From a virus (taxonomy: Duplodnaviria; Caudoviricetes), in IMG/VR virus record IMGVR_UViG_2901201504_000001, positions 32,001 to 96,000 of that record: a DNA stretch of 64,000 nucleotides. One strand, given 5' to 3'. Below the pieces are notes generated by a model. It saw only the letters and a list, made by a program, of their open reading frames with translations. It did no database searches and was not told where the DNA came from. A program made the position numbers and the translations under genes. Below, one piece after another: positions 9,403 to 22,843 of the stretch. Numbering within the stretch: position 1 is the stretch's first letter; the number at the start of each line of letters is the position of its first letter.

Positions 9403-9621
9403 TTAATGACAGTAACCACAGTCACATTCCTGTTCATCATTTCCTTCTAAGAGAGCAATCTTTTCATTTACATCATCAATAATTGCAGCTTCATAACCAT
9501 TAGAGAATCCATTTTGGAAAATCTCTTCAATCATCGCTTTTAATTCATCAAAAGATTCAGCTTGACTAACTTGTTCTGCGTATCCTTCTATTAATGAGCA
9601 AAATTCACATGTATGTTCCAT
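9403..9621 (-). CDS. Small Cys-containing hypothetical protein
   Basis: CxxC at both ends; coupled to the yonJ-like gene. Confidence 0.5.
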   Translation of the reverse strand: MEHTCEFCSLIEGYAEQVSQAESFDELKAMIEEIFQNGFSNGYEAAIIDDVNEKIALLEGNDEQECDCGYCH

Positions 9622-10841
9622 TAAGCACCTATCTTTCTATTTAATTGAATGTTATATGTACACAATCTAGATTCTTCTTTATCAAATATAATTAATTTCT
9701 GTGCAGCCTTACTTGTTCTACGAATATCTTTGGCGTATTCATCAACACCTGCAAAGCTTGAATTAACAATAATCTCAACCTCATGTGTCTCATTTTCTTC
9801 ATGGTGATGAGTATGTCCCATAACGATATAATCAGGAAATTCTCTAGTCATCATGGTTAAATTTTGAGCAACATTATGTACTTTATCTTTGTGACCATGA
9901 ACTCCAAATACTTTATAACCTAAAATGTCAGCTACAATAATTTCTTCATCATATTTATTTTCCATAAACACAACATTTTCAACGTGCCGTAATCTCTCTT
10001 TTAACCACCAAGGCACTAAATCATTGAAACTTTCTTTTGCGATTTCATCCTTTTTATTCGGTGTTACACGATCATGATTTCCACGCACGTTATAAATTTT
10101 GATATCTTCAATTTCATTAGCAAGTTTCGCAATTGCTTCAGATAAATATTCTGATACTCTCATAGTTTGAGAGATAGCATCTTCTGTATTGTTAATGCGT
10201 GTAATAAGATGAATCAATCCATTAATCAAATCACCAATCATGAATAAATGAAGAGTTTTAACTTTATTATCTTTGCAATATGTAATAGTTTTATTGATTA
10301 ATTTATCTAAACGAATTAGGAATTCTTCATTATTGAACTCATTCCAATAATTTTTAGTGAACAATCCATAATGCAAGTCAGATAGCAATAGTAGCGCTTC
10401 ACGCTCATAAGAAGATGGTAGGGGAGTAGACCATTTTAACGGTTTCTCTTTTGAAAGGTTATGTATTTCTTTAATCATCTCATCACGAACATGTTCAATT
10501 CTAGCTTGTTCACGAATAAGTTTCATGTATTCACGTTTTTGATCTTGTTTACGAATCTTTTCTTTTTCAGACTCAACTCTAATTTCTTCATATTTACCAA
10601 GAATCTCTTTGTCTAAATTTTTATTGATAATGTAATCTTTCCATTTACAGTACTGCTGATAATCCTTACGGAATTTACTTTCATCATAATTACTACCATA
10701 TTCTTTATTAAGTAACTCAGTAATAGAGTCTTTATCTAGACCATATTCTGATTTATTTTCAAATAATCGAATGAGATAATCTCTGAAACTTTCTTCTGAA
10801 GTACGATGTAAAATAGTATCTATCATGCAATCACTCTCCAA
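9621..10841 (-). CDS. yonJ: Calcineurin-like metallophosphoesterase (YonJ-like)
   Basis: Motifs SDLHYG, GDLING, GNHDR, HGH, GHTHH. Confidence 0.8.
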   Translation of the reverse strand: MESDCMIDTILHRTSEESFRDYLIRLFENKSEYGLDKDSITELLNKEYGSNYDESKFRKDYQQYCKWKDYIINKNLDKEILGKYEEIRVESEKEKIRKQDQKREYMKLIREQARIEHVRDEMIKEIHNLSKEKPLKWSTPLPSSYEREALLLLSDLHYGLFTKNYWNEFNNEEFLIRLDKLINKTITYCKDNKVKTLHLFMIGDLINGLIHLITRINNTEDAISQTMRVSEYLSEAIAKLANEIEDIKIYNVRGNHDRVTPNKKDEIAKESFNDLVPWWLKERLRHVENVVFMENKYDEEIIVADILGYKVFGVHGHKDKVHNVAQNLTMMTREFPDYIVMGHTHHHEENETHEVEIIVNSSFAGVDEYAKDIRRTSKAAQKLIIFDKEESRLCTYNIQLNRKIGA

Positions 10842-11016
10842 AAGTAACTTCTTTAGTCTCTTTAAACATGATATTTAATTGTTTACCTTCAAGTTCAGCG
10901 ATAACATCTGACAGTACATGGACAATTTCTTCTTCCTTTGTATGTTCGATGATTGAATTATCCTCTAATGAAATATAAGCGTTTTGAAAATTAATATTAA
11001 ATGATTGCTTTGCCAT
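10831..11016 (-). CDS. yonK: YonK-like small protein
   Basis: 61 aa immediately upstream of the yonJ-like gene, as in SPbeta. Confidence 0.6.
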   Translation of the reverse strand: MAKQSFNINFQNAYISLEDNSIIEHTKEEEIVHVLSDVIAELEGKQLNIMFKETKEVTFGE

Positions 11017-11066: not shown

Positions 11067-12308
11067 CTATAAAAGTTCAGCTAATTGAGCCGTATCACTA
11101 CGTTCAGTTTTGTCTAATGTAGCTAATCCGAATAAGATTTCTTTTTTTAAATTAGATAGTGCTCTAACGCCACTGTTATTTTTGTATACATCTTTATCTG
11201 TTTGTTTTAAATCTCCATTCAACCATAGTTCAGAGCCTTTACCTACACGACCTATCAGCAGTCTAAAATGCTCAACCGTGTTATTCTGACATTCAGTAAC
11301 GTAGATAATAGAGTTCTTTATGTCACGACCTCTAAGACTACCTAAATGTTGAATTTCAATTTTGCCTTGTCGAATTAAAACTTCTAAGCTTTCAATACCA
11401 CCGACATGATCTGCTAATGGCATAGCGAATTCAATAAGCTTTTCAAACTTATCTCCTGGTAATATGCCTAGAGTAGGCACGTCAGCTAATTCAACATTAT
11501 TCCTAGCCCAAATTAATTTGTCCATCTTACCTTGTTCAATTAAATCTAAAGCATGAGAAATCATTACAAAGTCTTTACCAACACCGTATTTACCAAAGCA
11601 AGCTTTAATAGTAATATCGTTGTTTTGCAACAAATCAAATAACATTTCTTGTTTCTTATTAATCGGTTTAACTTTTTCAGTAAATCTATTATGTATCGGT
11701 TTAAATTTCAACTTTACATACTTATATCCATCGAAACGAAATGAATCAATAAATGCATATCTATTTTGTATTCCATTACTATATGTAGGTTTTTCTTTAT
11801 CCCATATGTACAAATATTCATTAATGTTTAAATTGAATATGTTTCGTTCTGGTAATTCGTATATACTTGCTAATAATTCTTGGTCTTCCTTAGTTGATGT
11901 TACGAAAAATTCATGTACACCTGAATATTCTTCTTTGGATTGATTGTTAAATTCAATAACTTCAATTCCAAACCCTTTAGCTTTGTAGGTGAGTAAAACA
12001 TCGTTTGAAATAAGTGAATAATTTTGTTTCACACAACATGCCAAGATATTGTTATCTTCATATCGATCATCGTAATCGATGCCTAATTCAAATCCGTTAT
12101 AATCTCTTGCATCAAATTCAAATTTATCTAGGTTATCTTTAATGTATCTAGAAACAACTCTTGCTCTGTATTTCAAATCCTCATATTTACTCGATTTATG
12201 TTTCTCTAACTCTCTAAGTACATGAGAGGTAAGAACGATCTTGTACTCATCTAATTGCTCAATGTAATCCAAAATAATATTTGTATCCGCTACAAAGAGT
12301 TTATCCAT
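11067..12308 (-). CDS. PIN-domain + PhoH-family ATPase (PhoH2-like)
   Basis: N-terminal PIN motif VADTNIILD...ELEKHK...SNDVLL; PhoH motifs GKYGVGKD, LRGRDI, ECQN, GDLKQTD. Confidence 0.85.
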   Translation of the reverse strand: MDKLFVADTNIILDYIEQLDEYKIVLTSHVLRELEKHKSSKYEDLKYRARVVSRYIKDNLDKFEFDARDYNGFELGIDYDDRYEDNNILACCVKQNYSLISNDVLLTYKAKGFGIEVIEFNNQSKEEYSGVHEFFVTSTKEDQELLASIYELPERNIFNLNINEYLYIWDKEKPTYSNGIQNRYAFIDSFRFDGYKYVKLKFKPIHNRFTEKVKPINKKQEMLFDLLQNNDITIKACFGKYGVGKDFVMISHALDLIEQGKMDKLIWARNNVELADVPTLGILPGDKFEKLIEFAMPLADHVGGIESLEVLIRQGKIEIQHLGSLRGRDIKNSIIYVTECQNNTVEHFRLLIGRVGKGSELWLNGDLKQTDKDVYKNNSGVRALSNLKKEILFGLATLDKTERSDTAQLAELL

Positions 12309-15763: not shown

Positions 15764-15988
15764 TTAATATCCTCCAAGTAAATCCATCTTATGTTTTAAA
15801 TTACGACTAAATCTATTATGTATTAATCCATCTACTCTAACACAAGCATCATAAAATCTAATTTCTCGATTACTAGCCTCATTGTTTAATATTCTTTGAG
15901 ATAAGAATTCAATCACCTCATCATCTCTCCATCCACGTTTAATAGACTTGTACATACTCTTCACCTCCTGTATATAAGTATTCGACAT
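15764..15988 (-). CDS. Small protein upstream of yonO (YonP-like position)
   Basis: 74 aa, RBS AAGGAG. Confidence 0.5.
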   Translation of the reverse strand: MSNTYIQEVKSMYKSIKRGWRDDEVIEFLSQRILNNEASNREIRFYDACVRVDGLIHNRFSRNLKHKMDLLGGY

Positions 15989-16016
15989 TTATATTTCATC
16001 TCCTTTATTAATATTA

Positions 16017-16065
16017 ATTTATTTAACTTTTATTTATCATAACGGACATATCCTAATTTTGTAAA
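16017..16065 (-). promoter_or_regulatory. SigA-type promoter for the yonP-yonO genes with adjacent repressor-operator repeat
   Basis: TTTACA-N18-TATGAT on minus strand followed by AAATAAAAGTTAAATAAA. Confidence 0.5.
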
Positions 16066-16116
16066 GTGTAATTTTAATTTTTCTGAAAAAAATTTACAAA
16101 GTCATAAGTACAAGCA

Positions 16117-16180
16117 GATATTACATAATCTTTGAATATCTTTAAGAATCTACAAAGATTTTTAAAAATCTATACAGATA
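16117..16180. repeat. 10-bp phased GATW/WATC array (candidate tubC centromere/operator)
   Basis: GATA, AATC, TATC, AATC, GATT, AATC, GATA at 16117, 16127, 16137, 16147, 16157, 16167, 16177. Confidence 0.55.
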
Positions 16181-16193
16181 CAGGAGGATTTTC

Positions 16194-16475
16194 ATGGATT
16201 ACTTTGTTCACACTGTACTCAAATCTAGTCAAGAAGAGTTAGTATTGCTCAATGTATTAAATGAACATCAGGCTTACAATACTTATACATTTCTAACAAA
16301 GCAACAAATCAAAGACCAATCACATTTATCCGAATCAATTGTAAGAAAAACTCTGCTCATATTAGAAAGACTTCAATTTATTAATTCAATTTGCACGAAC
16401 AAAACAAAAGGGTACTATCTTACGAATCATGGTTTATTAGCAATTGAAAAAATCCTAGAGGGAGTGAATGAATAA
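16194..16475 (+). CDS. Winged-helix DNA-binding protein (TubR-like adaptor)
   Basis: wHTH-like LTKQQIKDQSHLSESIVRKTLLILERLQFI...GYYLTNHG; TAATG-coupled to the tubulin gene. Confidence 0.65.
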   Translation: MDYFVHTVLKSSQEELVLLNVLNEHQAYNTYTFLTKQQIKDQSHLSESIVRKTLLILERLQFINSICTNKTKGYYLTNHGLLAIEKILEGVNE

Positions 16476-17581
16476 TGATAGGTGTAATTGGTTTAGGTCA
16501 AGCTGGAGGAAATGTTGCAAACTTATTTGCCGAAAGAGGAATTCAAACTGCTGCAATTAACTATTCATCCAAAGACCTAGAGACTTGTAATCACATAGAA
16601 AACAAATTAAAACTCATTGGATCAGAAGGAGTTGGTAAACAAAGAGAGGAAGCAATTCGACTATTTCACAACAATTATGAATCAGCTTTAATATTCATTA
16701 AAGAGCATTTCTCACAACCTTCTGTTGAATTAATCTTTATTGTTTTTAGTGCGGCAGGAGGGAGTGGAAGTGGTATAGCTTCAATATTATCCGAGCTACT
16801 ACTCAACGAAATGCAGGAAAAAACTTTCATAATTTGCCCCATCATTCCTACTGTCTCAGAGTGCATTACAGCGCAATTAAACACTCTAGATACATTGACT
16901 AGCCTAAGTGAATTAGAAGCCTGTATCATTCCATTGGACAACGAGAAGGGGATGTCTAAGGGCGCTAAAGACAAATCTTACCACTTTATAAATCAGACGT
17001 TTGTAGACACTATTTTAACGATAGCTGACTACACTAATATGCATTCAATCACAGGAAACTTTGATGCAAGGGACTTGCGTACATTGTTGTCTACAACTGG
17101 ATTCTGCTCAATTGGACAATGTGACATTTCACATCTAAAGAATGAAGACATATCCGTAAATATCGAAGTTGTATCTAAAAAAGTAAGAACATCGCATTTT
17201 GAGTCAATCTTCACATCTCCTTCATTGGAACAAATAGTACGATCAGGCTTAATATTTGATGGGCAAGAATCATTAATGTATTGTGTCGATCTTGATAAAA
17301 TTCACAATCAATTTCCCAATCAACCTTTGGATGTTTTTGAAGGCTATTATACAGAAGAAAAAGGGAGAGTAATATCTATTTACTGTGGTTTAAAATTTAA
17401 CAGTACAAGATTAAATCAGATTGAAAAATTAGCAACTGAACGAATAGAATCTTTCCAAAACACTCATCAAAGCACATCTATATCCATAAAAAGACCAACT
17501 CTTAAAAGCCCAATTATGTCATCTAAACCTAAGAAATCGCTATCTGATATTCTAAATAAACACAAGAAAACTAATATATAA
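16475..17581 (+). CDS. Tubulin/FtsZ-superfamily GTPase (TubZ/PhuZ-like)
   Basis: GLGQAGGN, GSEGVGK, signature AAGGSGSG, PLDN, T7-loop-like NFDARD, basic C-terminal tail. Confidence 0.85.
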   Translation: MIGVIGLGQAGGNVANLFAERGIQTAAINYSSKDLETCNHIENKLKLIGSEGVGKQREEAIRLFHNNYESALIFIKEHFSQPSVELIFIVFSAAGGSGSGIASILSELLLNEMQEKTFIICPIIPTVSECITAQLNTLDTLTSLSELEACIIPLDNEKGMSKGAKDKSYHFINQTFVDTILTIADYTNMHSITGNFDARDLRTLLSTTGFCSIGQCDISHLKNEDISVNIEVVSKKVRTSHFESIFTSPSLEQIVRSGLIFDGQESLMYCVDLDKIHNQFPNQPLDVFEGYYTEEKGRVISIYCGLKFNSTRLNQIEKLATERIESFQNTHQSTSISIKRPTLKSPIMSSKPKKSLSDILNKHKKTNI

Positions 17582-17597
17582 AAATAGTAAATTATCA

Positions 17598-17732
17598 TTA
17601 CCCGTCAGTTTACCTGATACTTTATTTTCATTACCTAATCGTTACCCATTATCATTACCAGTTGATTTTACAATATCGGTAATTACCCAAACAGCAGGTA
17701 ATGGAAAATCGGTAAGTATAAAACGTTGGTAA
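17598..17732. repeat. Cluster of TTACC direct repeats followed by inverted GGTAA copies
   Basis: TTACC at 17598, 17610, 17631, 17642, 17655, 17683; GGTAA at 17678, 17697, 17711, 17728. Confidence 0.6.
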
Positions 17733-17781
17733 TAAACCTTTAGATTTAATTTTCACATATAATTCTTCCTTAAATAAAATG

Positions 17782-17840
17782 AAAAAAGAAGTTTGAGTTT
17801 CAGTTGTAAATTTTCTTCTGAATTCAAGCTTCTTTTTTTT
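17782..17840. terminator. Bidirectional hairpin terminator
   Basis: AAAAAAGAAG...CTTCTTTTTTTT inverted repeat between convergent genes. Confidence 0.55.
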
Positions 17841-17845
17841 GAAAT

Positions 17846-18022
17846 TTATTCAATGATTCCTACTTCATGTAAAAATGTTAAAAGTTCATGTAATCTTTTT
17901 CTGCTCATTCCTGTTTTTTCTATTACATAATCAGAGGTGAATTCCAACTTCTCTTCAAACTTAGGAGGCTCGTATGTACCCCATGAACCAATTGACATAT
18001 GTCCACGTACATTTTCACTCAT
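17846..18022 (-). CDS. 58-aa HTH-like protein missed by the ORF track
   Basis: MSENVRGH...SDYVIEKTGMSRKRLHELLTFLHEVGIIE; RBS GGGAGG. Confidence 0.55.
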   Translation of the reverse strand: MSENVRGHMSIGSWGTYEPPKFEEKLEFTSDYVIEKTGMSRKRLHELLTFLHEVGIIE

Positions 18023-18165
18023 TTACCTTTGCCTCCCTTGTTCGTTCTATCTAAAAAATCATTTACTGCATCTCTTGGATCTTGTTTGTAAATAAATGAC
18101 ATGTTTTCCAACTCCGTTTATAATTATCTTAATAGTAGTCTTACCTCAAGGAGTTGACGTTATAC

Positions 18166-18597
18166 ATGAAAGAAAAAGTTACTTTAACCGTAGATATAAC
18201 TATGAAAAACTATGTAAATATTAAAAATCTCATTGGTTATTGTAAGTACAACAACTTGATTATCAGCGAAAATTTACCTACCACTGACGAAGAAATAATT
18301 AATGCTGCACTATTTTCTTACTTTGAGAAGATTGAAACAATCGTAAGATATTATAATGTGGATAAATCAGCATTGAATTTAGAAGAAGGAACAAAAATTA
18401 AAAATAGGATAAAAGAAATATTAAAGATGACTGGTATGAAACAGAAAGAATTATCTGAATTAACAGGTATTGAAACAGCTACATTATCTGCAATGTTATC
18501 TAACAGAAACCAACCATCAATCGAAAACTTTTTGCGTATATGGACTGTGTTAGGGTGTCCACCAATTGAAGAAGTATTCTACAGAGAGAAGGAGTGA
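18166..18597 (+). CDS. XRE-family HTH regulator (C-terminal HTH)
   Basis: NRIKEILKMTGMKQKELSELTGIETATLSAMLSNRNQPS. Confidence 0.75.
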   Translation: MKEKVTLTVDITMKNYVNIKNLIGYCKYNNLIISENLPTTDEEIINAALFSYFEKIETIVRYYNVDKSALNLEEGTKIKNRIKEILKMTGMKQKELSELTGIETATLSAMLSNRNQPSIENFLRIWTVLGCPPIEEVFYREKE

Positions 18598-18642
18598 TCC
18601 TTCTTTTTTGTTGTTTGTAGATTTTTTTAAAATTTATTATAC

Positions 18643-18670
18643 ATAGTACAATCAACGTCATCCATATACT
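18643..18670 (+). promoter_or_regulatory. Possible SigE/SigK-type sporulation promoter
   Basis: ATA-N17-CATATACT upstream of RBS GGAGG and the membrane-protein operon. Confidence 0.3.
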
Positions 18671-18687
18671 TAATCAAACAACCGGAG

Positions 18688-18879
18688 GTGATTAACATGA
18701 TGTTTGCAACTGTATTAGCTTTGAAAATTGGAGCATTAGGAAGTGTGGGTGTAGGAATTGCAAGTGCATTAAAATTATTTCATAACTACGAATGGAAACA
18801 ATCATCTAAGAAAGGTGTGAAATATGATGACAACTATGACAGTGAATCTTTGCGTGAAAAAGCAAGACGAATTAATTAA
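18688..18879 (+). CDS. Small single-TM protein
   Basis: Hydrophobic N-terminus; RBS GGAGGTG. Confidence 0.5.
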   Translation: MINMMFATVLALKIGALGSVGVGIASALKLFHNYEWKQSSKKGVKYDDNYDSESLREKARRIN

Positions 18880-19393
18880 ATACAATGATTTTAATCAATT
18901 TGTTTTTCGACAAACTGAGGAGAGTACCAATGTAAATTTTCATTTACCAACAATAAAGGAGGTGAAAAGTTTACCAAAGAAAACGAAAAAGAAATTTCAC
19001 AAAATTGCAGTATCATTTCTAGCAACTGTAGCAACTTACATGGTATCCGCATCAAAATCAATGGCAAGTACTGTACTGCCATCAACATCAAACGACATCA
19101 TAAACATTCCGGCAACAGCACAGGGACTTCCTCCAGAACTTATGCAGATATTCGGAACAGGTCTAGTAATATTAGTAGCTGTAGCAGTTCTACTTTGCAT
19201 GGCAATGTTGATGGGAGCAGGCCTATTAAGAGCAATGAGGAAGAAAAAAGAAGCGAGCGAATGGACAGGAGACATCATAAAAGGATTAGTTCAAGTACTT
19301 TTAGCACCACCAATCATATTTTTAATCTTCTATATAGCAACAATCCTGTTCACCGGTTCAAGTTGGTTCATCAATCCTTTCGTAATACGCTAA
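18824..19393 (+). CDS. Membrane protein with pilin/VirB2-like C-terminal hairpin
   Basis: Signal-like segment ending SMA, then two long hydrophobic helices joined by basic loop RAMRKKKE. Confidence 0.45.
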   Translation: MMTTMTVNLCVKKQDELIKYNDFNQFVFRQTEESTNVNFHLPTIKEVKSLPKKTKKKFHKIAVSFLATVATYMVSASKSMASTVLPSTSNDIINIPATAQGLPPELMQIFGTGLVILVAVAVLLCMAMLMGAGLLRAMRKKKEASEWTGDIIKGLVQVLLAPPIIFLIFYIATILFTGSSWFINPFVIR

Positions 19394-20496
19394 AAAAGGT
19401 AGCTATCCCATTTGCAGTATTATCTACATCCTCACTATTATTTACATTAAAAGCTTCTGCTGAATCTTTTTGGGAAAGAGGGGATATCACAAAACATGGT
19501 TTATTTAATAAAGAGAATATCTTAGAACGTGGCGGATCAATTCAGGAATTTAAAGATGTTACTGAAAAGCTAGGTATGATTCTCGATAAAATCATTAAAG
19601 GAATGGATTGGATTGCATACGCTTGGTATCATCCTGATGAAATGTCTATTAAACTCCTAACATCTATCTACGAAGTACTAACTAAAGTCGTACTAACTAC
19701 CCCTACATTCATTTTCAATAATACTTTCATTCAAAGCATTTCATTAAAATTCTCATTAATTAGCATTGTTATAGTCACTGCTTTAACTATCGTTGAATCA
19801 ATTATGCAAATTACAAGACAAAAACATACGAAAATCAAAACAATTATAAAACGCTATTTTGGAGTGGTTACTGTTACTGGTTTTGCTCCATTCTTATTTG
19901 AAAAAGGCTTTGACTTTATTAACAAATTAACTTCATCAATTATTTCATTAGGTGGAGATTTCAGCAGAGCTACTACCACTGTGCAAACTATGGGAATGGC
20001 AAATCTGGATGTGTTAATTATGTTTGCATTTGATATTACTCTTTTAGCTATGTTAATTCCTATAATGCTTCAAAACGGTAGACGATGGTGGGATTTAATG
20101 TGTTTATCTGCAACTGCACCAATAGCCGGAGTCGCATTTGTATTTGATCGATACAGACATTACTTTGATTCCTGGTGGAGTTCGGTAAAACGTTTATCAA
20201 TGATTCAATTAGTGTATGGTGTGTTTATCACTTTACTAGGTGTATTTATTTTTGCCACTAGAGATATGGTCACAGGTTGGGAATTGATTATCAAATTACT
20301 TATAGCAGCAGGAGGAATGTGGAGATTATTAAATCCACCAAGAATAGTTCTGAATTTAACACAAGGAGACGGTAAAGATGTATTCAACATGTATGACGAC
20401 TATAAATCTGGAGCTAAAAAAGTCATTGATACTGTTACATTCAAAAACTTTAGACCTGTCAATTTCATCAAAAGTAAATTAAAAAAGAATAAATAG
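19195..20496 (+). CDS. Polytopic membrane protein (VirB6/TrbL-like); true start probably near 19363
   Basis: Signal peptide ending ASA, ~6 hydrophobic helices, RWWDLMCLSATAPIA...FDSWW pattern reminiscent of Gram-positive VirB6-like proteins. Confidence 0.5.
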   Translation: MHGNVDGSRPIKSNEEEKRSERMDRRHHKRISSSTFSTTNHIFNLLYSNNPVHRFKLVHQSFRNTLKKVAIPFAVLSTSSLLFTLKASAESFWERGDITKHGLFNKENILERGGSIQEFKDVTEKLGMILDKIIKGMDWIAYAWYHPDEMSIKLLTSIYEVLTKVVLTTPTFIFNNTFIQSISLKFSLISIVIVTALTIVESIMQITRQKHTKIKTIIKRYFGVVTVTGFAPFLFEKGFDFINKLTSSIISLGGDFSRATTTVQTMGMANLDVLIMFAFDITLLAMLIPIMLQNGRRWWDLMCLSATAPIAGVAFVFDRYRHYFDSWWSSVKRLSMIQLVYGVFITLLGVFIFATRDMVTGWELIIKLLIAAGGMWRLLNPPRIVLNLTQGDGKDVFNMYDDYKSGAKKVIDTVTFKNFRPVNFIKSKLKKNK

Positions 20497-20508
20497 TGAG
20501 GTGTTAGC

Positions 20509-20622
20509 ATGATAACCTTATTAGTTTGCAATACAATAATGCTCATCATAAATTCATTTGTCTTATATGTAAACAGTGACTTAATAAGCAAGGTGATGGA
20601 AGATGATAAGAATAGGTACTAA
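20509..20622 (+). CDS. 37-aa single-TM peptide
   Basis: MITLLVCNTIMLIINSFVLYV..., RBS GAGGTG, overlaps the ftsK-like start. Confidence 0.45.
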   Translation: MITLLVCNTIMLIINSFVLYVNSDLISKVMEDDKNRY

Positions 20623-22843
20623 ACCAAATAAAACCATTCAGAAAAACAGCAATTTTACGTATAAATTAGATGTATTTCATGACAAATTGATACAAAAGTA
20701 TATGGATTCCGACCATATTTCAACTAACATATACGGTTTTGAAATACTATCAAATTCTGAAATATACACTTTTACACCTACCTTAGATCGATTAGAATAC
20801 TCAATTGTAGAACAAGATTTATCCACTTATTTTAACTCAAATACTTTGCAATTATATGAAATACAAATGAAAAATCCTTTGTTTCTTCCTATATATAATA
20901 AATTCCAACAATCTCTCATAGAGCAAATATTCAATATCCAACAAAGCTATCCTGTTCTCATCCAAATCTTAATACAAAAAATAAATAAATGGAGAGATAA
21001 TGCAATCTCACAGTATGAAGAATTCTTGAAGGGGAATGATTATCCATCTGAAAATAGGATTCTTAGAAATACACAAAGCAAGATCATAAATGTGCTTAAT
21101 AAATTCGCTAACTTCCAAGTGAAAAGAAAACCGATTCAAGACGTAGAAGATAAAATTCTTAGTGATAACTTTAAGATTGAAATACGCTTTGCTATAGAAG
21201 ACAATGAGGGAGAATTTGAGTTAACAATTAATAAATTTCTAAAACAATATGATTACTATAATCAATTAGAGCTAGTCAAAATATATGATGTAGATAGTCA
21301 AATACAATTGATTAAAAATAGACAAATGAAGTCATATACACTTAATCAATTGTCCACTTCAGAAATTAATTCTCTCTTTTCATCTGATAAGTCAGATATT
21401 ACTCCTAAACAAGAAGTAATGATAACGTCCAATAGAAAAAGTCAACAAACAAGTAATCCTGAACAATATAATCATTTACTTGATGTGCTACCGAAATATG
21501 AAAAACAATCAAATGATATTGATAATGAAATAGTTGATAGATTGATACAAAGCTTCAAACGTACAAAAATAACGAACAAATTAATAAAAATAGGTGAGGT
21601 AGCAAGAGGAGCAACATTGCAAAAAGTTACTCTAAAAATCCCTAATGATATAGTCTATACGAACATTGAGAAGAATCTAAAGAATATACAGGCCACATTG
21701 GGTAATGATGCAATTAGTATGGAAATTAGCGATACTCCTGACTCTGTAGATTTCTATATTCCATGTAGTGAAAGAGAAGTAGTTTATTTACGAAATGTAT
21801 TAGAATCAGACGAATTTATTGAGCAAGTAACTGAATTAACTTTGCCATTAATATTAGGTGAAGATAGCATAGGTAAACCATTGCTTTCTGATTTAGCAGA
21901 GTTAAAGCATATTCTTATAGCAGGAGCAACTGGTAGTGGTAAATCAGTATTTCTTAATGCATTGATACTTACTATGATTATGTACAAAGAACCTGGGGAA
22001 TTAAAGCTGATACTTATTGATCCAAAGAAAGTAGAACTAGTGCCATTTAGTAAGTATCCTCAAGTTACCTTTGTAGACGATATGAATAAAGCAACAAATA
22101 CATTTGAGACATTAATCAATGAGATGAATAAACGTTACGATACTTTTGCAAGTAAAGGATGTAGGAATATTGCTCAATACAATTCTAAGTTAGACATAAA
22201 AGTACCATACTTAGTTTGTATTGTAGACGAATTATCAGATTTAATGGATACGCATGGTAATGAAATTGAATCACATATTATAAGATTAGGTCAGAAAGCT
22301 AGAGCAGCAGGTATACATTTAATATTATGTACACAGAAACCTTCAGTAGATGTTATTACAAGCAGGATAAAGAGTAATTTACCAAGCGCCATTAGCTTTA
22401 GATTGAAAGCACAGAGCGACTATAGAACTGTATTTGGTAAAGGTATTCCTTATCATCTATTAGGAAAAGGTGATGGAGTAGCGATGTTAGAAGGGAATAG
22501 TAAAGAGTTTATTAGGTTTCAATCACCTGTCATTGATCTTGATGACAATACAACCGTAGATATTATTGATAAGATAGCAGATACCTATGAAGGAATTCAA
22601 CATGAACCAATAAAAATTATTGAAACTGAAGAACCGATTGATAAACTAAAGCGTATTATAGCTAGTACAGGTGAGACTAGGATATCTGAATTACAAAAAG
22701 AGATGAAAATAAGGATTAATCTAGTCTCAGAATTAATGAAGCAGTTGGTTACCGAGGAATGGGTAATTAAAGAAGGAAAAGGATATAAGATAATTGTTAG
22801 TGAGAATGAGTTAGATAAATGGAGGGAAGTTGCTGAACAGTGA
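20603..22843 (+). CDS. FtsK/SpoIIIE-family DNA translocase
   Basis: HILIAGATGSGKS, LIDPKKVEL, IVDELSDLM, ARAAGIHLILCTQKP, LLGKGD; C-terminal wHTH; no N-terminal TM. Confidence 0.9.
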   Translation: MIRIGTKPNKTIQKNSNFTYKLDVFHDKLIQKYMDSDHISTNIYGFEILSNSEIYTFTPTLDRLEYSIVEQDLSTYFNSNTLQLYEIQMKNPLFLPIYNKFQQSLIEQIFNIQQSYPVLIQILIQKINKWRDNAISQYEEFLKGNDYPSENRILRNTQSKIINVLNKFANFQVKRKPIQDVEDKILSDNFKIEIRFAIEDNEGEFELTINKFLKQYDYYNQLELVKIYDVDSQIQLIKNRQMKSYTLNQLSTSEINSLFSSDKSDITPKQEVMITSNRKSQQTSNPEQYNHLLDVLPKYEKQSNDIDNEIVDRLIQSFKRTKITNKLIKIGEVARGATLQKVTLKIPNDIVYTNIEKNLKNIQATLGNDAISMEISDTPDSVDFYIPCSEREVVYLRNVLESDEFIEQVTELTLPLILGEDSIGKPLLSDLAELKHILIAGATGSGKSVFLNALILTMIMYKEPGELKLILIDPKKVELVPFSKYPQVTFVDDMNKATNTFETLINEMNKRYDTFASKGCRNIAQYNSKLDIKVPYLVCIVDELSDLMDTHGNEIESHIIRLGQKARAAGIHLILCTQKPSVDVITSRIKSNLPSAISFRLKAQSDYRTVFGKGIPYHLLGKGDGVAMLEGNSKEFIRFQSPVIDLDDNTTVDIIDKIADTYEGIQHEPIKIIETEEPIDKLKRIIASTGETRISELQKEMKIRINLVSELMKQLVTEEWVIKEGKGYKIIVSENELDKWREVAEQ

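Follow-up and report, generated by a model that had tools for sequence, protein, structure and literature searches.

Why should a phage that is inherited as part of its host's chromosome carry genes for DNA partition? This question is raised by a 64,000-nucleotide stretch of viral DNA, hereafter the window, which comprises bases 32001–96000 of the 137,119 bp IMG/VR record IMGVR_UViG_2901201504_000001 and to which all coordinates refer unless stated otherwise. In it, a tubR–tubZ pair of the type III (TubZRC-type) partition systems lies beside a gene for a YonO-type RNA polymerase, a marker of SPbeta-like phages. What has been learned of tubulin-based (type III) partition comes from plasmids and from a single plasmid-like phage, and SPbeta-type phages are models for lysis–lysogeny decisions and for sporulation-linked excision. 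Since an element passed on with the chromosome ought to manage without a partition system, the cassette points to an unstudied phase in which the phage DNA is a free circle. The account that we favour, and hold to be rather more probable than all else, is that the window carries an intact type III cassette of the class found on plasmid pBM400, borne by an integrating SPbeta-like temperate phage as an accessory module at the divergent yonO junction, and that this cassette acts on the phage DNA in its free-circle form.

Identification of TubR and TubZ

The reading frame at 16194–16475 encodes TubR, directly upstream of tubZ. In a phmmer search of the PDB, its product matched TubR of pBM400 (4ASN; E value 2.9e-7, residues 2–88, 30% identity) and the TubR structure 6TEY (E 0.016). 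A family profile made from 22 TubR sequences of related loci matched the same two structures at E 2.6e-31 and 2.3e-8, respectively, and TubR of pBtoxis only at E 0.4–0.6. The AlphaFold2 (AF2) model, with a predicted local distance difference test (pLDDT) score of 92.2, consists of an N-terminal helix, a winged helix-turn-helix (HTH) and a C-terminal helix, and its top Foldseek matches were 4ASN (query-normalized TM-score, TMq, 0.89; root-mean-square deviation, rmsd, 1.3) and, in second place, TubR of the Clostridium botulinum phage c-st (6TEY). The stop codon of tubR (TAA, 16473–16475) and the start codon of tubZ (ATG, 16475–16477) overlap by one base in the sequence TAATG, and GGGAG is found at 16460–16464. 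The original prediction, which had been made from the letters of the window alone, had proposed a winged HTH gene translationally coupled to a gene for a tubulin/FtsZ-type GTPase, and the fold match of TubR together with the TAATG overlap bears this out.

The frame at 16475–17581 encodes TubZ and neither FtsZ nor PhuZ. Its product matched the Pfam Tubulin family PF00091 with E 1.4e-13 and 52 bits (cut-off 33 bits), and its top sequence matches in the PDB were the c-st TubZ entries 3V3T and 4XCQ. The TubZ family profile reached E 2.2e-35 against 4XCQ over positions 4–337, E 1.7e-11 against 4EI7 (‘Plasmid replication protein RepX’) and about 5e-10 against TubZ of Bacillus thuringiensis. The AF2 model (pLDDT 86.9) was likewise closest in fold to c-st TubZ (4xcq; target-normalized TM-score, TMt, 0.86, rmsd 2.7), followed by CetZ, B. 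thuringiensis TubZ and Bacillus cereus TubZ. Among the candidates considered for this protein, FtsZ proper was rejected with 36.3 bits against the TIGR00065 equivalog model, whose cut-off is 295.2 bits. PhuZ was rejected because phrog_4733 matched residues 6–147 only, at E 2.1e-8 and thus more weakly than phrog_17961 (E 2.5e-12), and because a TubR gene is present. CetZ, in spite of its good fold matches, is an archaeal family without an adaptor. Comparison by profile and by structure therefore favoured TubZ over FtsZ and over the PhuZ family of phage proteins, and the type III nature of the pair that had been proposed is supported by sequence and fold matches to both 4ASN and c-st TubZ.

The catalytic motifs of TubZ are in place. 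The G-box AAGGSGSG (residues 93–100, with GGSGSG at 95–100) forms an intact nucleotide loop, and the T7-type motif GNFDARD (residues 194–200) lies between model helices 165–186 and 198–205 and contains two aspartates, D197 and D200, which are invariant in 32 homologues and align with the GVVDEDE motif of c-st TubZ. Acidic residues of this loop are required in type III systems for GTP hydrolysis coupled to polymerisation. Both motifs had been correctly recognized in the original prediction. Towards the C-terminus, a linker of residues 333–353 is disordered in the model (pLDDT below 50) and is followed by a conserved basic helix, KKSLSDILNKHKK, with the consensus KKSxSDILxKYKR. By tblastn against PLSDB, the nearest annotated relatives of TubZ, with 38% identity over 78–88% of the query, were found on Priestia plasmids (pBM400 and 17 others), and two Bacillus ‘plasmid’ records of about 122–125 kb matched with 39–40% identity.

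The tubR and tubZ frames are both intact and conserved, and a decaying remnant was rejected as an explanation on these grounds. In a related strain, X2, 360 of the 368 TubZ residues are identical, whereas a 29,757 nt contig of X2 that covers 15764–18200 shows 125 differences among 2437 places and five gaps, amounting to about 5% divergence overall. A protein that is nearly identical over such divergent DNA suggests purifying selection on tubZ, given that the X2 protein and the X2 contig have been paired by us. The similarity to X2 begins abruptly at 15764, at the end of a 74-aa gene, and the unlike sequence to the left marks a mosaic breakpoint, so that the left neighbour of the tubRZ module in X2 is another one.

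The phage is SPbeta-like and integrated at kamA

YonO of the window is 58–59% identical to YonO of SPbeta-like phages, phi3T and SPR over 97–98% of its length, and matched phrog_8308 at E 1e-295. This degree of identity justifies the label of SPbeta-like phage, which the locus had been given beforehand, and the other marks of the group are also found, namely a genome of 137,119 bp (about 130 kb in the group), a large serine recombinase at the prophage end and integration in kamA (in the group, spsM or kamA). IMG/VR classifies the record as a provirus and CheckV gives it a completeness of 100; the G+C content of the window is about 30%.

At the left end of the record, bases 1–1032 hold a 5′-open frame that matched positions 2–319 of the 417 positions of a lysine 2,3-aminomutase model (E 4.9e-157). 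This kamA gene is cut at its 3′ end, at about residue 335, and is followed by the gene for a 529-aa large serine recombinase (the two genes occupying record bases 1–2658). Integration of phi3T in kamA is described in PMC12361552 and also in a preprint by Dragos, whose supplementary dataset 3 is indicated there to tabulate strains that harbour phage DNA outside the chromosome and could be relevant to a plasmid state. The truncated kamA with its adjoining serine recombinase corresponds to integration of the phi3T type, and the phage of this record is integrated in the host chromosome at kamA. The suggestion that the phage might persist as a plasmid-like prophage was thus not confirmed for this record, which is not an extrachromosomal, circular contig but a provirus with a fragment of host kamA at its left end. 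The same holds for most of its kin, as among 32 related IMG/VR records with this TubZ there are 26 proviruses, four linear records and two with direct terminal repeats. A Recombinase-domain protein is encoded in 9 of 33 records, including a Bacillus pumilus ‘plasmid’, and TubZ homologues are also present on contigs of 2.5–5 Mb.

Occurrence of the cassette among relatives

Relatives were taken from an alignment-based scan of IMG/VR, which yielded the best 80 of 118 loci encoding a TubZ relative, and the main comparison set comprised 55 loci (L008–L062) with a TubZ identity of at least 34%. A TubR-like open reading frame (ORF) abuts tubZ in 52 of these 55 viral loci, and YonO with at least 54% identity is encoded divergently upstream of tubRZ in 27 of them. 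Counted from the side of YonO, 54 viral contigs with YonO had at least 2.7 kb of flanking sequence, and in 20 of them tubRZ is the neighbour of yonO; 18 of 72 loci had been left out as too short. The loci are kin, with roughly eight clades distinguished by eye, and the counts do not represent independent events.

A tblastn search with TubZ against the 50,697 phage records of a cultured-phage collection gave no match, although 41 of these records carry YonO, and the region beside yonO in SPbetaL1 holds no tubRZ genes, in keeping with the earlier statement that canonical SPbeta has no tubulin. Megablast of 16000–17700 against plasmids and phages gave no match either. Tubulin partition machinery thus emerges as a common accessory of integrating SPbeta-like prophages that is present in no cultured SPbeta-like phage of the collection. 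A literature search, with subscription papers and supplements outside its scope, retrieved no publication linking TubRZ to SPbeta-like phages.

YonO homologues of 49–52% identity were also found on c-st-like C. botulinum plasmids, which suggests, from sequence comparison, that c-st-like and SPbeta-like phages are built on related genome backbones. On one of these plasmids, p1BKT015925 (178240–195300, locus L089), YonO is 49% identical and split into two ORFs, HU is encoded as well, and FtsZ-like and MerR genes are situated about 6 kb away.

A phased array upstream of tubR

Directly upstream of tubR, sites with the core AGAT or ATCT in mixed orientation follow one another at exact 10 bp steps, with positions 16118, 28, 38, 48, 58, 68, 78, 88 and 98. 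Seven GATW/WATC tetramers with this period had been noticed at the outset; these are present, and the run is in fact nine sites long (16118–16198) when AT dinucleotides with a G on the 5′ side or a C on the 3′ side are counted at exact 10 bp steps. The eighth site is part of the ribosome-binding site (RBS; GGAGGAT) of tubR, and the ninth is found where the gene starts (ATGGAT). The second hexamer of a promoter-like sequence, TTTACA-18 nt-GATATT, coincides with the first site, which would place the −10 region, leader and RBS all within the array.

In the whole 137,119 bp genome, the period-10 runs comprised 4667 of length one, 167 of length two, five of length three and a single run of nine, and no run of at least five was found at periods 8, 9, 11, 12 or 13. 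The longest run in each of 200 genomes simulated by a first-order Markov model was three in 158 genomes, four in 39 and five in three. Tandem Repeats Finder reported 16127–16171 as a repeat of period 10 with the consensus AATCTTTAAA and a weak score of 41. The array that had been proposed as a candidate centromere is thus non-random, recurs in relatives and fits a TubR operator or centromere.

Exact 10 bp runs of at least four sites were present in 6 of 46 distinct tubR upstream regions (nine sites in the window, four in L010 and six each in L011, L012, L049 and L055), and runs of at least three in 28 of the 46. In the remainder of those loci (7–17 kb each) no run exceeded three, with the exception of one in L015. 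This latter run (10812–10912) consists of ten GAT sites at exact 10 bp steps, with the 20 bp unit aagattttct gcgatattat, about 1.7 kb downstream of tubZ. In the window, L011 and L012, the array keeps the same register with respect to RBS and start codon. Between X2 and the window, a single difference falls within 16100–16200 (at 16173, between sites) among the differences listed, which are ordered by place up to 16528.

Other clades present the same core in other arrangements, such as TCTATATAGATA in the B. pumilus group, AAGATAC in a Bacillus subtilis-group clade and three copies of AGTATCT in pBM400, and AGAT/ATCT-type cores precede tubR in all clades examined. The predicted recognition helix of TubR, S/T-E-A-x-F/I-R-K, is kept across clades alongside these cores. 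Since the upstream core and the recognition helix are both conserved across clades while the motif of a second array downstream of tubZ varies, we assign TubR, with moderate confidence, to the upstream array.

A convergent array downstream of tubZ

Between the tubZ stop codon and a long hairpin lies a second array, which was not part of the original prediction. In order, it consists of five direct TTACC units (extended form ATC[A/G]TTACC), a GGTAATTACC palindrome and three inverted GGTAA units, all within 17598–17732. With ten TTACC/GGTAA occurrences in 135 bp, compared with 139 in the 64 kb of the window, it is the sole cluster of at least six per 140 bp in the 137 kb genome. Its spacings are 11–14 and 21–23 bp, without 10 bp phasing. 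A coding function was rejected for this region, as it contains no plus-strand ORF of at least 40 aa.

The hairpin, with 18 nt arms that are 89% complementary, has a predicted RNA folding energy of −24.9 kcal/mol (z −5.6, with 0 of 200 shuffles as good) and is absent from the list of a simple terminator scan. Because it lies 3′ of the second array, the array is contained in the tubRZ transcription unit.

The same layout of direct followed by inverted repeats after tubZ was found in relatives, built on TTACC, GTTTCC or ATCGTA. It occurs with the TTACC motif in L008/9, L011, L019, L041, L049 and L051, with GTTAC variants in L012, with CGTTTCCC in six copies followed by GGGAAACG in L013, and with ATCGTAA followed by TTACGAT in the B. 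subtilis-group clade. When convergent arrays were scored with exact 6-mers, 28 of the 52 distinct downstream regions reached at least four, compared with 15 of 472 control windows, and 12 of 52 reached at least five, compared with 1 of 472; two loci had been dropped from this count as their downstream sequence was too short. Neither SPbetaL1 nor the loci that have YonO without TubZ showed such a cluster, and no convergent array was found after tubZ of pBM400. In the B. pumilus-group loci L002 (7819–7956) and L043 (9813–9942), seven direct repeats containing ACACA are located about 700 nt after tubZ. We regard the convergent TTACC array as part of the tubRZ module; the array may be the true centromere, a set of origin-type iterons or the binding site of another protein.

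Neighbouring genes

The features of the locus are collected in Table 1. The hairpin is followed by a divergent pair formed by the 58-aa gene and the gene for an XRE-type HTH protein, with a near-consensus promoter, ATGACA-17-TATAAT, at 18096–18124 between them; this arrangement is switch-like. In the cluster that begins with the latter gene, the two membrane proteins belong to phrog_3528 and phrog_3750, and the 746-aa ATPase matched the FtsK/SpoIIIE domain at E 2e-47 and phrog_3551 at E 1e-190, its best phage matches being SPO1-like Bacillus phages (35–37% identity). The cluster bears a likeness to the ‘DNA translocation operon’ that Pathria et al. describe from a phage, in which a translocase is encoded along with membrane anchors and a homologue of MreB (PMC3357382); we mention this likeness as a lead and not as a result. 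On the late-side arm, beyond yonO, a PIN–PhoH fusion gene (PF13638 and PF02562) is located at 11067–12308 on the minus strand, next to a gene with a metallophosphatase domain at 9621–10841.

Table 1. Features at and around the tubRZ cassette (window coordinates)
Feature	Position	Strand	Basis or remark
yonO, YonO-type single-subunit RNA polymerase, 845 aa	13169–15706	−	divergent from tubRZ; SPbeta-like marker
sigma-70-type promoter-like site TTTACA-18 nt-GATATT	16093–16122	+	consensus scan, 9/12 matches; weak
phased array, candidate TubR operator/centromere (tubC)	16117–16200	.	nine GAT/ATC sites at exact 10 bp steps
tubR, 93-aa winged-helix protein, centromere-binding type	16194–16475	+	phmmer, family profile, AF2, Foldseek
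tubZ, 368-aa tubulin/FtsZ-fold GTPase-type protein	16475–17581	+	PF00091, PDB phmmer, profile, AF2, Foldseek
second array; may serve as centromere, origin iterons or binding site for another protein	17594–17735	.	between tubZ stop and hairpin
long hairpin flanked by A-run and T-run, likely bidirectional terminator	17781–17839	.	closes tubRZ unit and convergent 58-aa gene
58-aa gene, convergent to tubRZ	17846–18022	−	
XRE-type HTH protein, 147 aa	18154–18597	+	
XRE-type HTH gene, two membrane protein genes, 746-aa FtsK/SpoIIIE-like ATPase gene	18154–22843		

How the cassette may act

With the prophage integrated, the cassette should matter once the 137 kb genome is a free circle. Such circles would occur after excision or induction, after infection and before integration, and in hosts without a usable kamA site. 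In the mechanism that we propose, tubR and tubZ would be transcribed from the weak sigma-A-type promoter in front of them, and TubR dimers would then occupy the nine AGAT/ATCT sites, which extend over the −10 region, leader and RBS, cooperatively and along a single face of the helix. This loading would both shut down the operon by autorepression and build a nucleoprotein complex, which the conserved basic C-terminal tail of TubZ may grip, and GTP-driven TubZ filaments would move the DNA that bears the TubR complex. For pBtoxis and the pXO1-like plasmids, TubR is reported to bind repeats upstream of tubRZ and to repress the operon (PMC7762940). Precedent for such a pair in an integrated prophage comes from AlpAC: in the prophage CGP3 of Corynebacterium glutamicum, the adaptor AlpA, co-transcribed with the filament protein AlpC, is reported to bind the promoter region of its own operon and to link circular phage DNA to the cytomotive filament, AlpAC being induced early and required for efficient replication (PMC4446434). 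On its free 137 kb circle, the cassette would position or segregate the phage DNA much as AlpAC serves CGP3. We conclude from the combined analysis that the phage probably uses TubRZ on its own DNA once this is free of the chromosome, and of the two roles first suggested, plasmid-like persistence and positioning of phage DNA on filaments, the latter appears to be the best reading.

Several points weigh against this account. The MerR-type protein TubY is reported as a third component on which stable maintenance depends in the systems of B. cereus and c-st (PMC7762940), and no match to PF13411 or PF12728 at E ≤0.1 was found in the 137 kb genome. The call of the promoter is weak, since the region proved no richer in promoter-like sites than shuffled sequences, and the last two of the nine phased sites may simply reflect the RBS and the Met-Asp start. 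A centromere-like site that was active in the integrated prophage could disturb the handling of the chromosome, so that the cassette must be silent in the lysogen, which we assume. Finally, whereas the layout downstream of tubZ is kept across clades, only 6 of the 46 upstream regions have a strong array, so that the true centromere may be the downstream array and the upstream array an operator only. This last point enters into a wider possibility that we consider doubtful but worth stating, according to which these are dual-lifestyle phages that integrate by a serine recombinase but whose free circle, present after excision, before integration or in hosts where kamA is absent or already occupied, is actively carried on TubZ filaments. 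The 3′ convergent array would then be a new type III centromere and the upstream array the autoregulatory operator only, and the cassette might even, with the adjacent FtsK-like membrane module, route the DNA to a compartment such as the forespore.

Two other explanations concern the form in which the phage DNA is maintained. The phage could be mainly a low-copy plasmid prophage with TubRZ as its partition system, as c-st is. Two circular PLSDB ‘plasmids’ of 124,561 and 122,487 bp, from B. pumilus and Bacillus velezensis, have the layout YonO or YonO-like gene, tubR and tubZ; the c-st-like plasmids share YonO and HU and carry TubZ with a MerR gene; and an episomal state of phi3T in a kamA-less host is suggested by the authors of PMC12361552. 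Such records indicate a free circle abundant enough to assemble and are no proof of a plasmid lifestyle. The B. pumilus ‘plasmid’ encodes a 563-aa serine recombinase and may be an excised copy caught in the assembly, and TubZ was found in only two of the four Bacillus PLSDB records with a YonO match. Together with the truncated kamA and serine recombinase at the left end of our record, the predominance of proviruses among its relatives and the homologues on contigs of 2.5–5 Mb, this makes a plasmid prophage unlikely. We place about as little weight on the idea that tubR–tubZ, with the convergent repeats as an origin, allows or boosts replication of the free circle. It draws on the tubZ/tubR units of B. 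cereus-group megaplasmids (RepX, ORF156/157, Rep228 and Rep466), each described with a putative origin as a minireplicon that supports replication (PMC4219350), on the RepX match of our family profile, and on the iteron-like array, which lies at the minimum of the cumulative GC skew of the window. This minimum, however, coincides with a switch in gene orientation and so is not independent evidence for an origin, the module encodes no initiator-type protein, and SPbeta-like phages without TubRZ replicate, with no such array found either in SPbetaL1 or in the loci that have YonO without TubZ.

Two further explanations, both of which we judge very improbable, give other roles to the surroundings of the genes. 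TubRZ might cooperate with the downstream HTH protein, membrane proteins and FtsK/SpoIIIE-like ATPase to bring phage DNA to a site at the membrane, with the TTACC array as recognition site; the forespore and a sister cell are conceivable destinations. The strong ATPase matches, the homologues in SPO1-like phages and the precedent of Pathria et al. speak for such translocation, as do FtsK-like genes after tubRZ in L008/9, L011, L012, L013, L016, L041, L049, L051 and L052, most of them with TTACC-type arrays. Yet in the B. subtilis-group clade (L024, L002, L023 and others) tubRZ and a convergent ATCGTA array occur with no FtsK-like gene within 8 kb, tubRZ is set apart from the genes that follow by the strong hairpin and a convergent gene, and no relaxase was found. 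As to the phased array, it might be intrinsically curved promoter DNA with A/T tracts, or the operator of another regulator, instead of a TubR site; the array region is about 80% A+T, the consensus unit AATCTTTAAA holds phased A/T tracts, and several loci, L002, L008 and L041 among them, have a weak upstream array or none. But the phased element is a GAT/ATC anchored by G/C and not an A-tract, and L055 has six AAGATC sites at 10 bp steps whose spacers contain G/C, which argues for recognition of the sites rather than mere curvature. Against either version stands the joint conservation of the AGAT/ATCT-type cores before tubR, including those of pBM400, and of the predicted recognition helix.

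The action of the cassette on free phage DNA, as we favour it, is open to direct study, since hosts of the B. subtilis group, which are easily manipulated, have relatives of the cassette. The two cis arrays offer concrete targets, one a phased candidate operator of nine sites and the other a convergent array whose motif covaries with the clade.

Comparison with known systems

The closest relative of both proteins is found on pBM400 of P. megaterium, whose TubZ aligns with 87% of the query at 38% identity and whose TubR gave the best match in sequence and fold alike. There, as here, tubR abuts tubZ and is preceded by repeats that contain ATCT, namely three AGTATCT copies spaced by 38 and 30 bp. 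The two systems differ in that pBM400 is a 54 kb plasmid and the pair described here belongs to a 137 kb prophage integrated in kamA, and in that the latter has nine exactly phased upstream sites and a convergent array after tubZ.

The jumbo phages with PhuZ also encode tubulin-fold GTPases that position phage DNA. PhuZ is not known to work with a TubR-type adaptor or centromere, and the phage of the window, unlike those phages, is temperate and has a genome of only about 137 kb.

A phage-borne cassette is shared with c-st of C. botulinum, which provides the best structural match for TubZ and the second fold match for TubR. In the description of its centromere tubC, short pentamers are spaced by 6 bp and cover the promoter (PMC6009700), and a centromere of short repeats placed over the promoter resembles the upstream array of the window. 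The c-st-like plasmids moreover have YonO and HU in common with SPbeta-like phages, and this shared possession of YonO, HU and TubZ suggests that the cassette is exchanged between plasmid-prophage and integrating lifestyles. However, c-st is a plasmid prophage, its TubZ is only 22–23% identical to that of the window, and it has TubY, for which no MerR-type counterpart was found in the 137 kb genome. Its TubR is described as monomeric and without an N-terminal helix (PMC6009700), whereas TubR of the window has such a helix in the AF2 model.

The TubZ fold is shared as well with pBtoxis of B. thuringiensis and with the pXO1-like plasmids of the B. cereus group (2xka, TMq 0.74; 4ei7, TMq 0.73). 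These TubZ proteins are only 17–19% identical to that of the window, and pBtoxis TubR hardly registers with our family profile; the tubZ/tubR units of such plasmids have been described as megaplasmid minireplicons (PMC4219350).

In its logic, the cassette is nearest to AlpAC of CGP3, likewise described from an integrated prophage (PMC4446434). That system is built on an actin-like and not a tubulin-like motor, has no homology to TubRZ and belongs to a host of a different phylum, so that the likeness lies in the arrangement of an adaptor and a filament serving the DNA of an integrated prophage.

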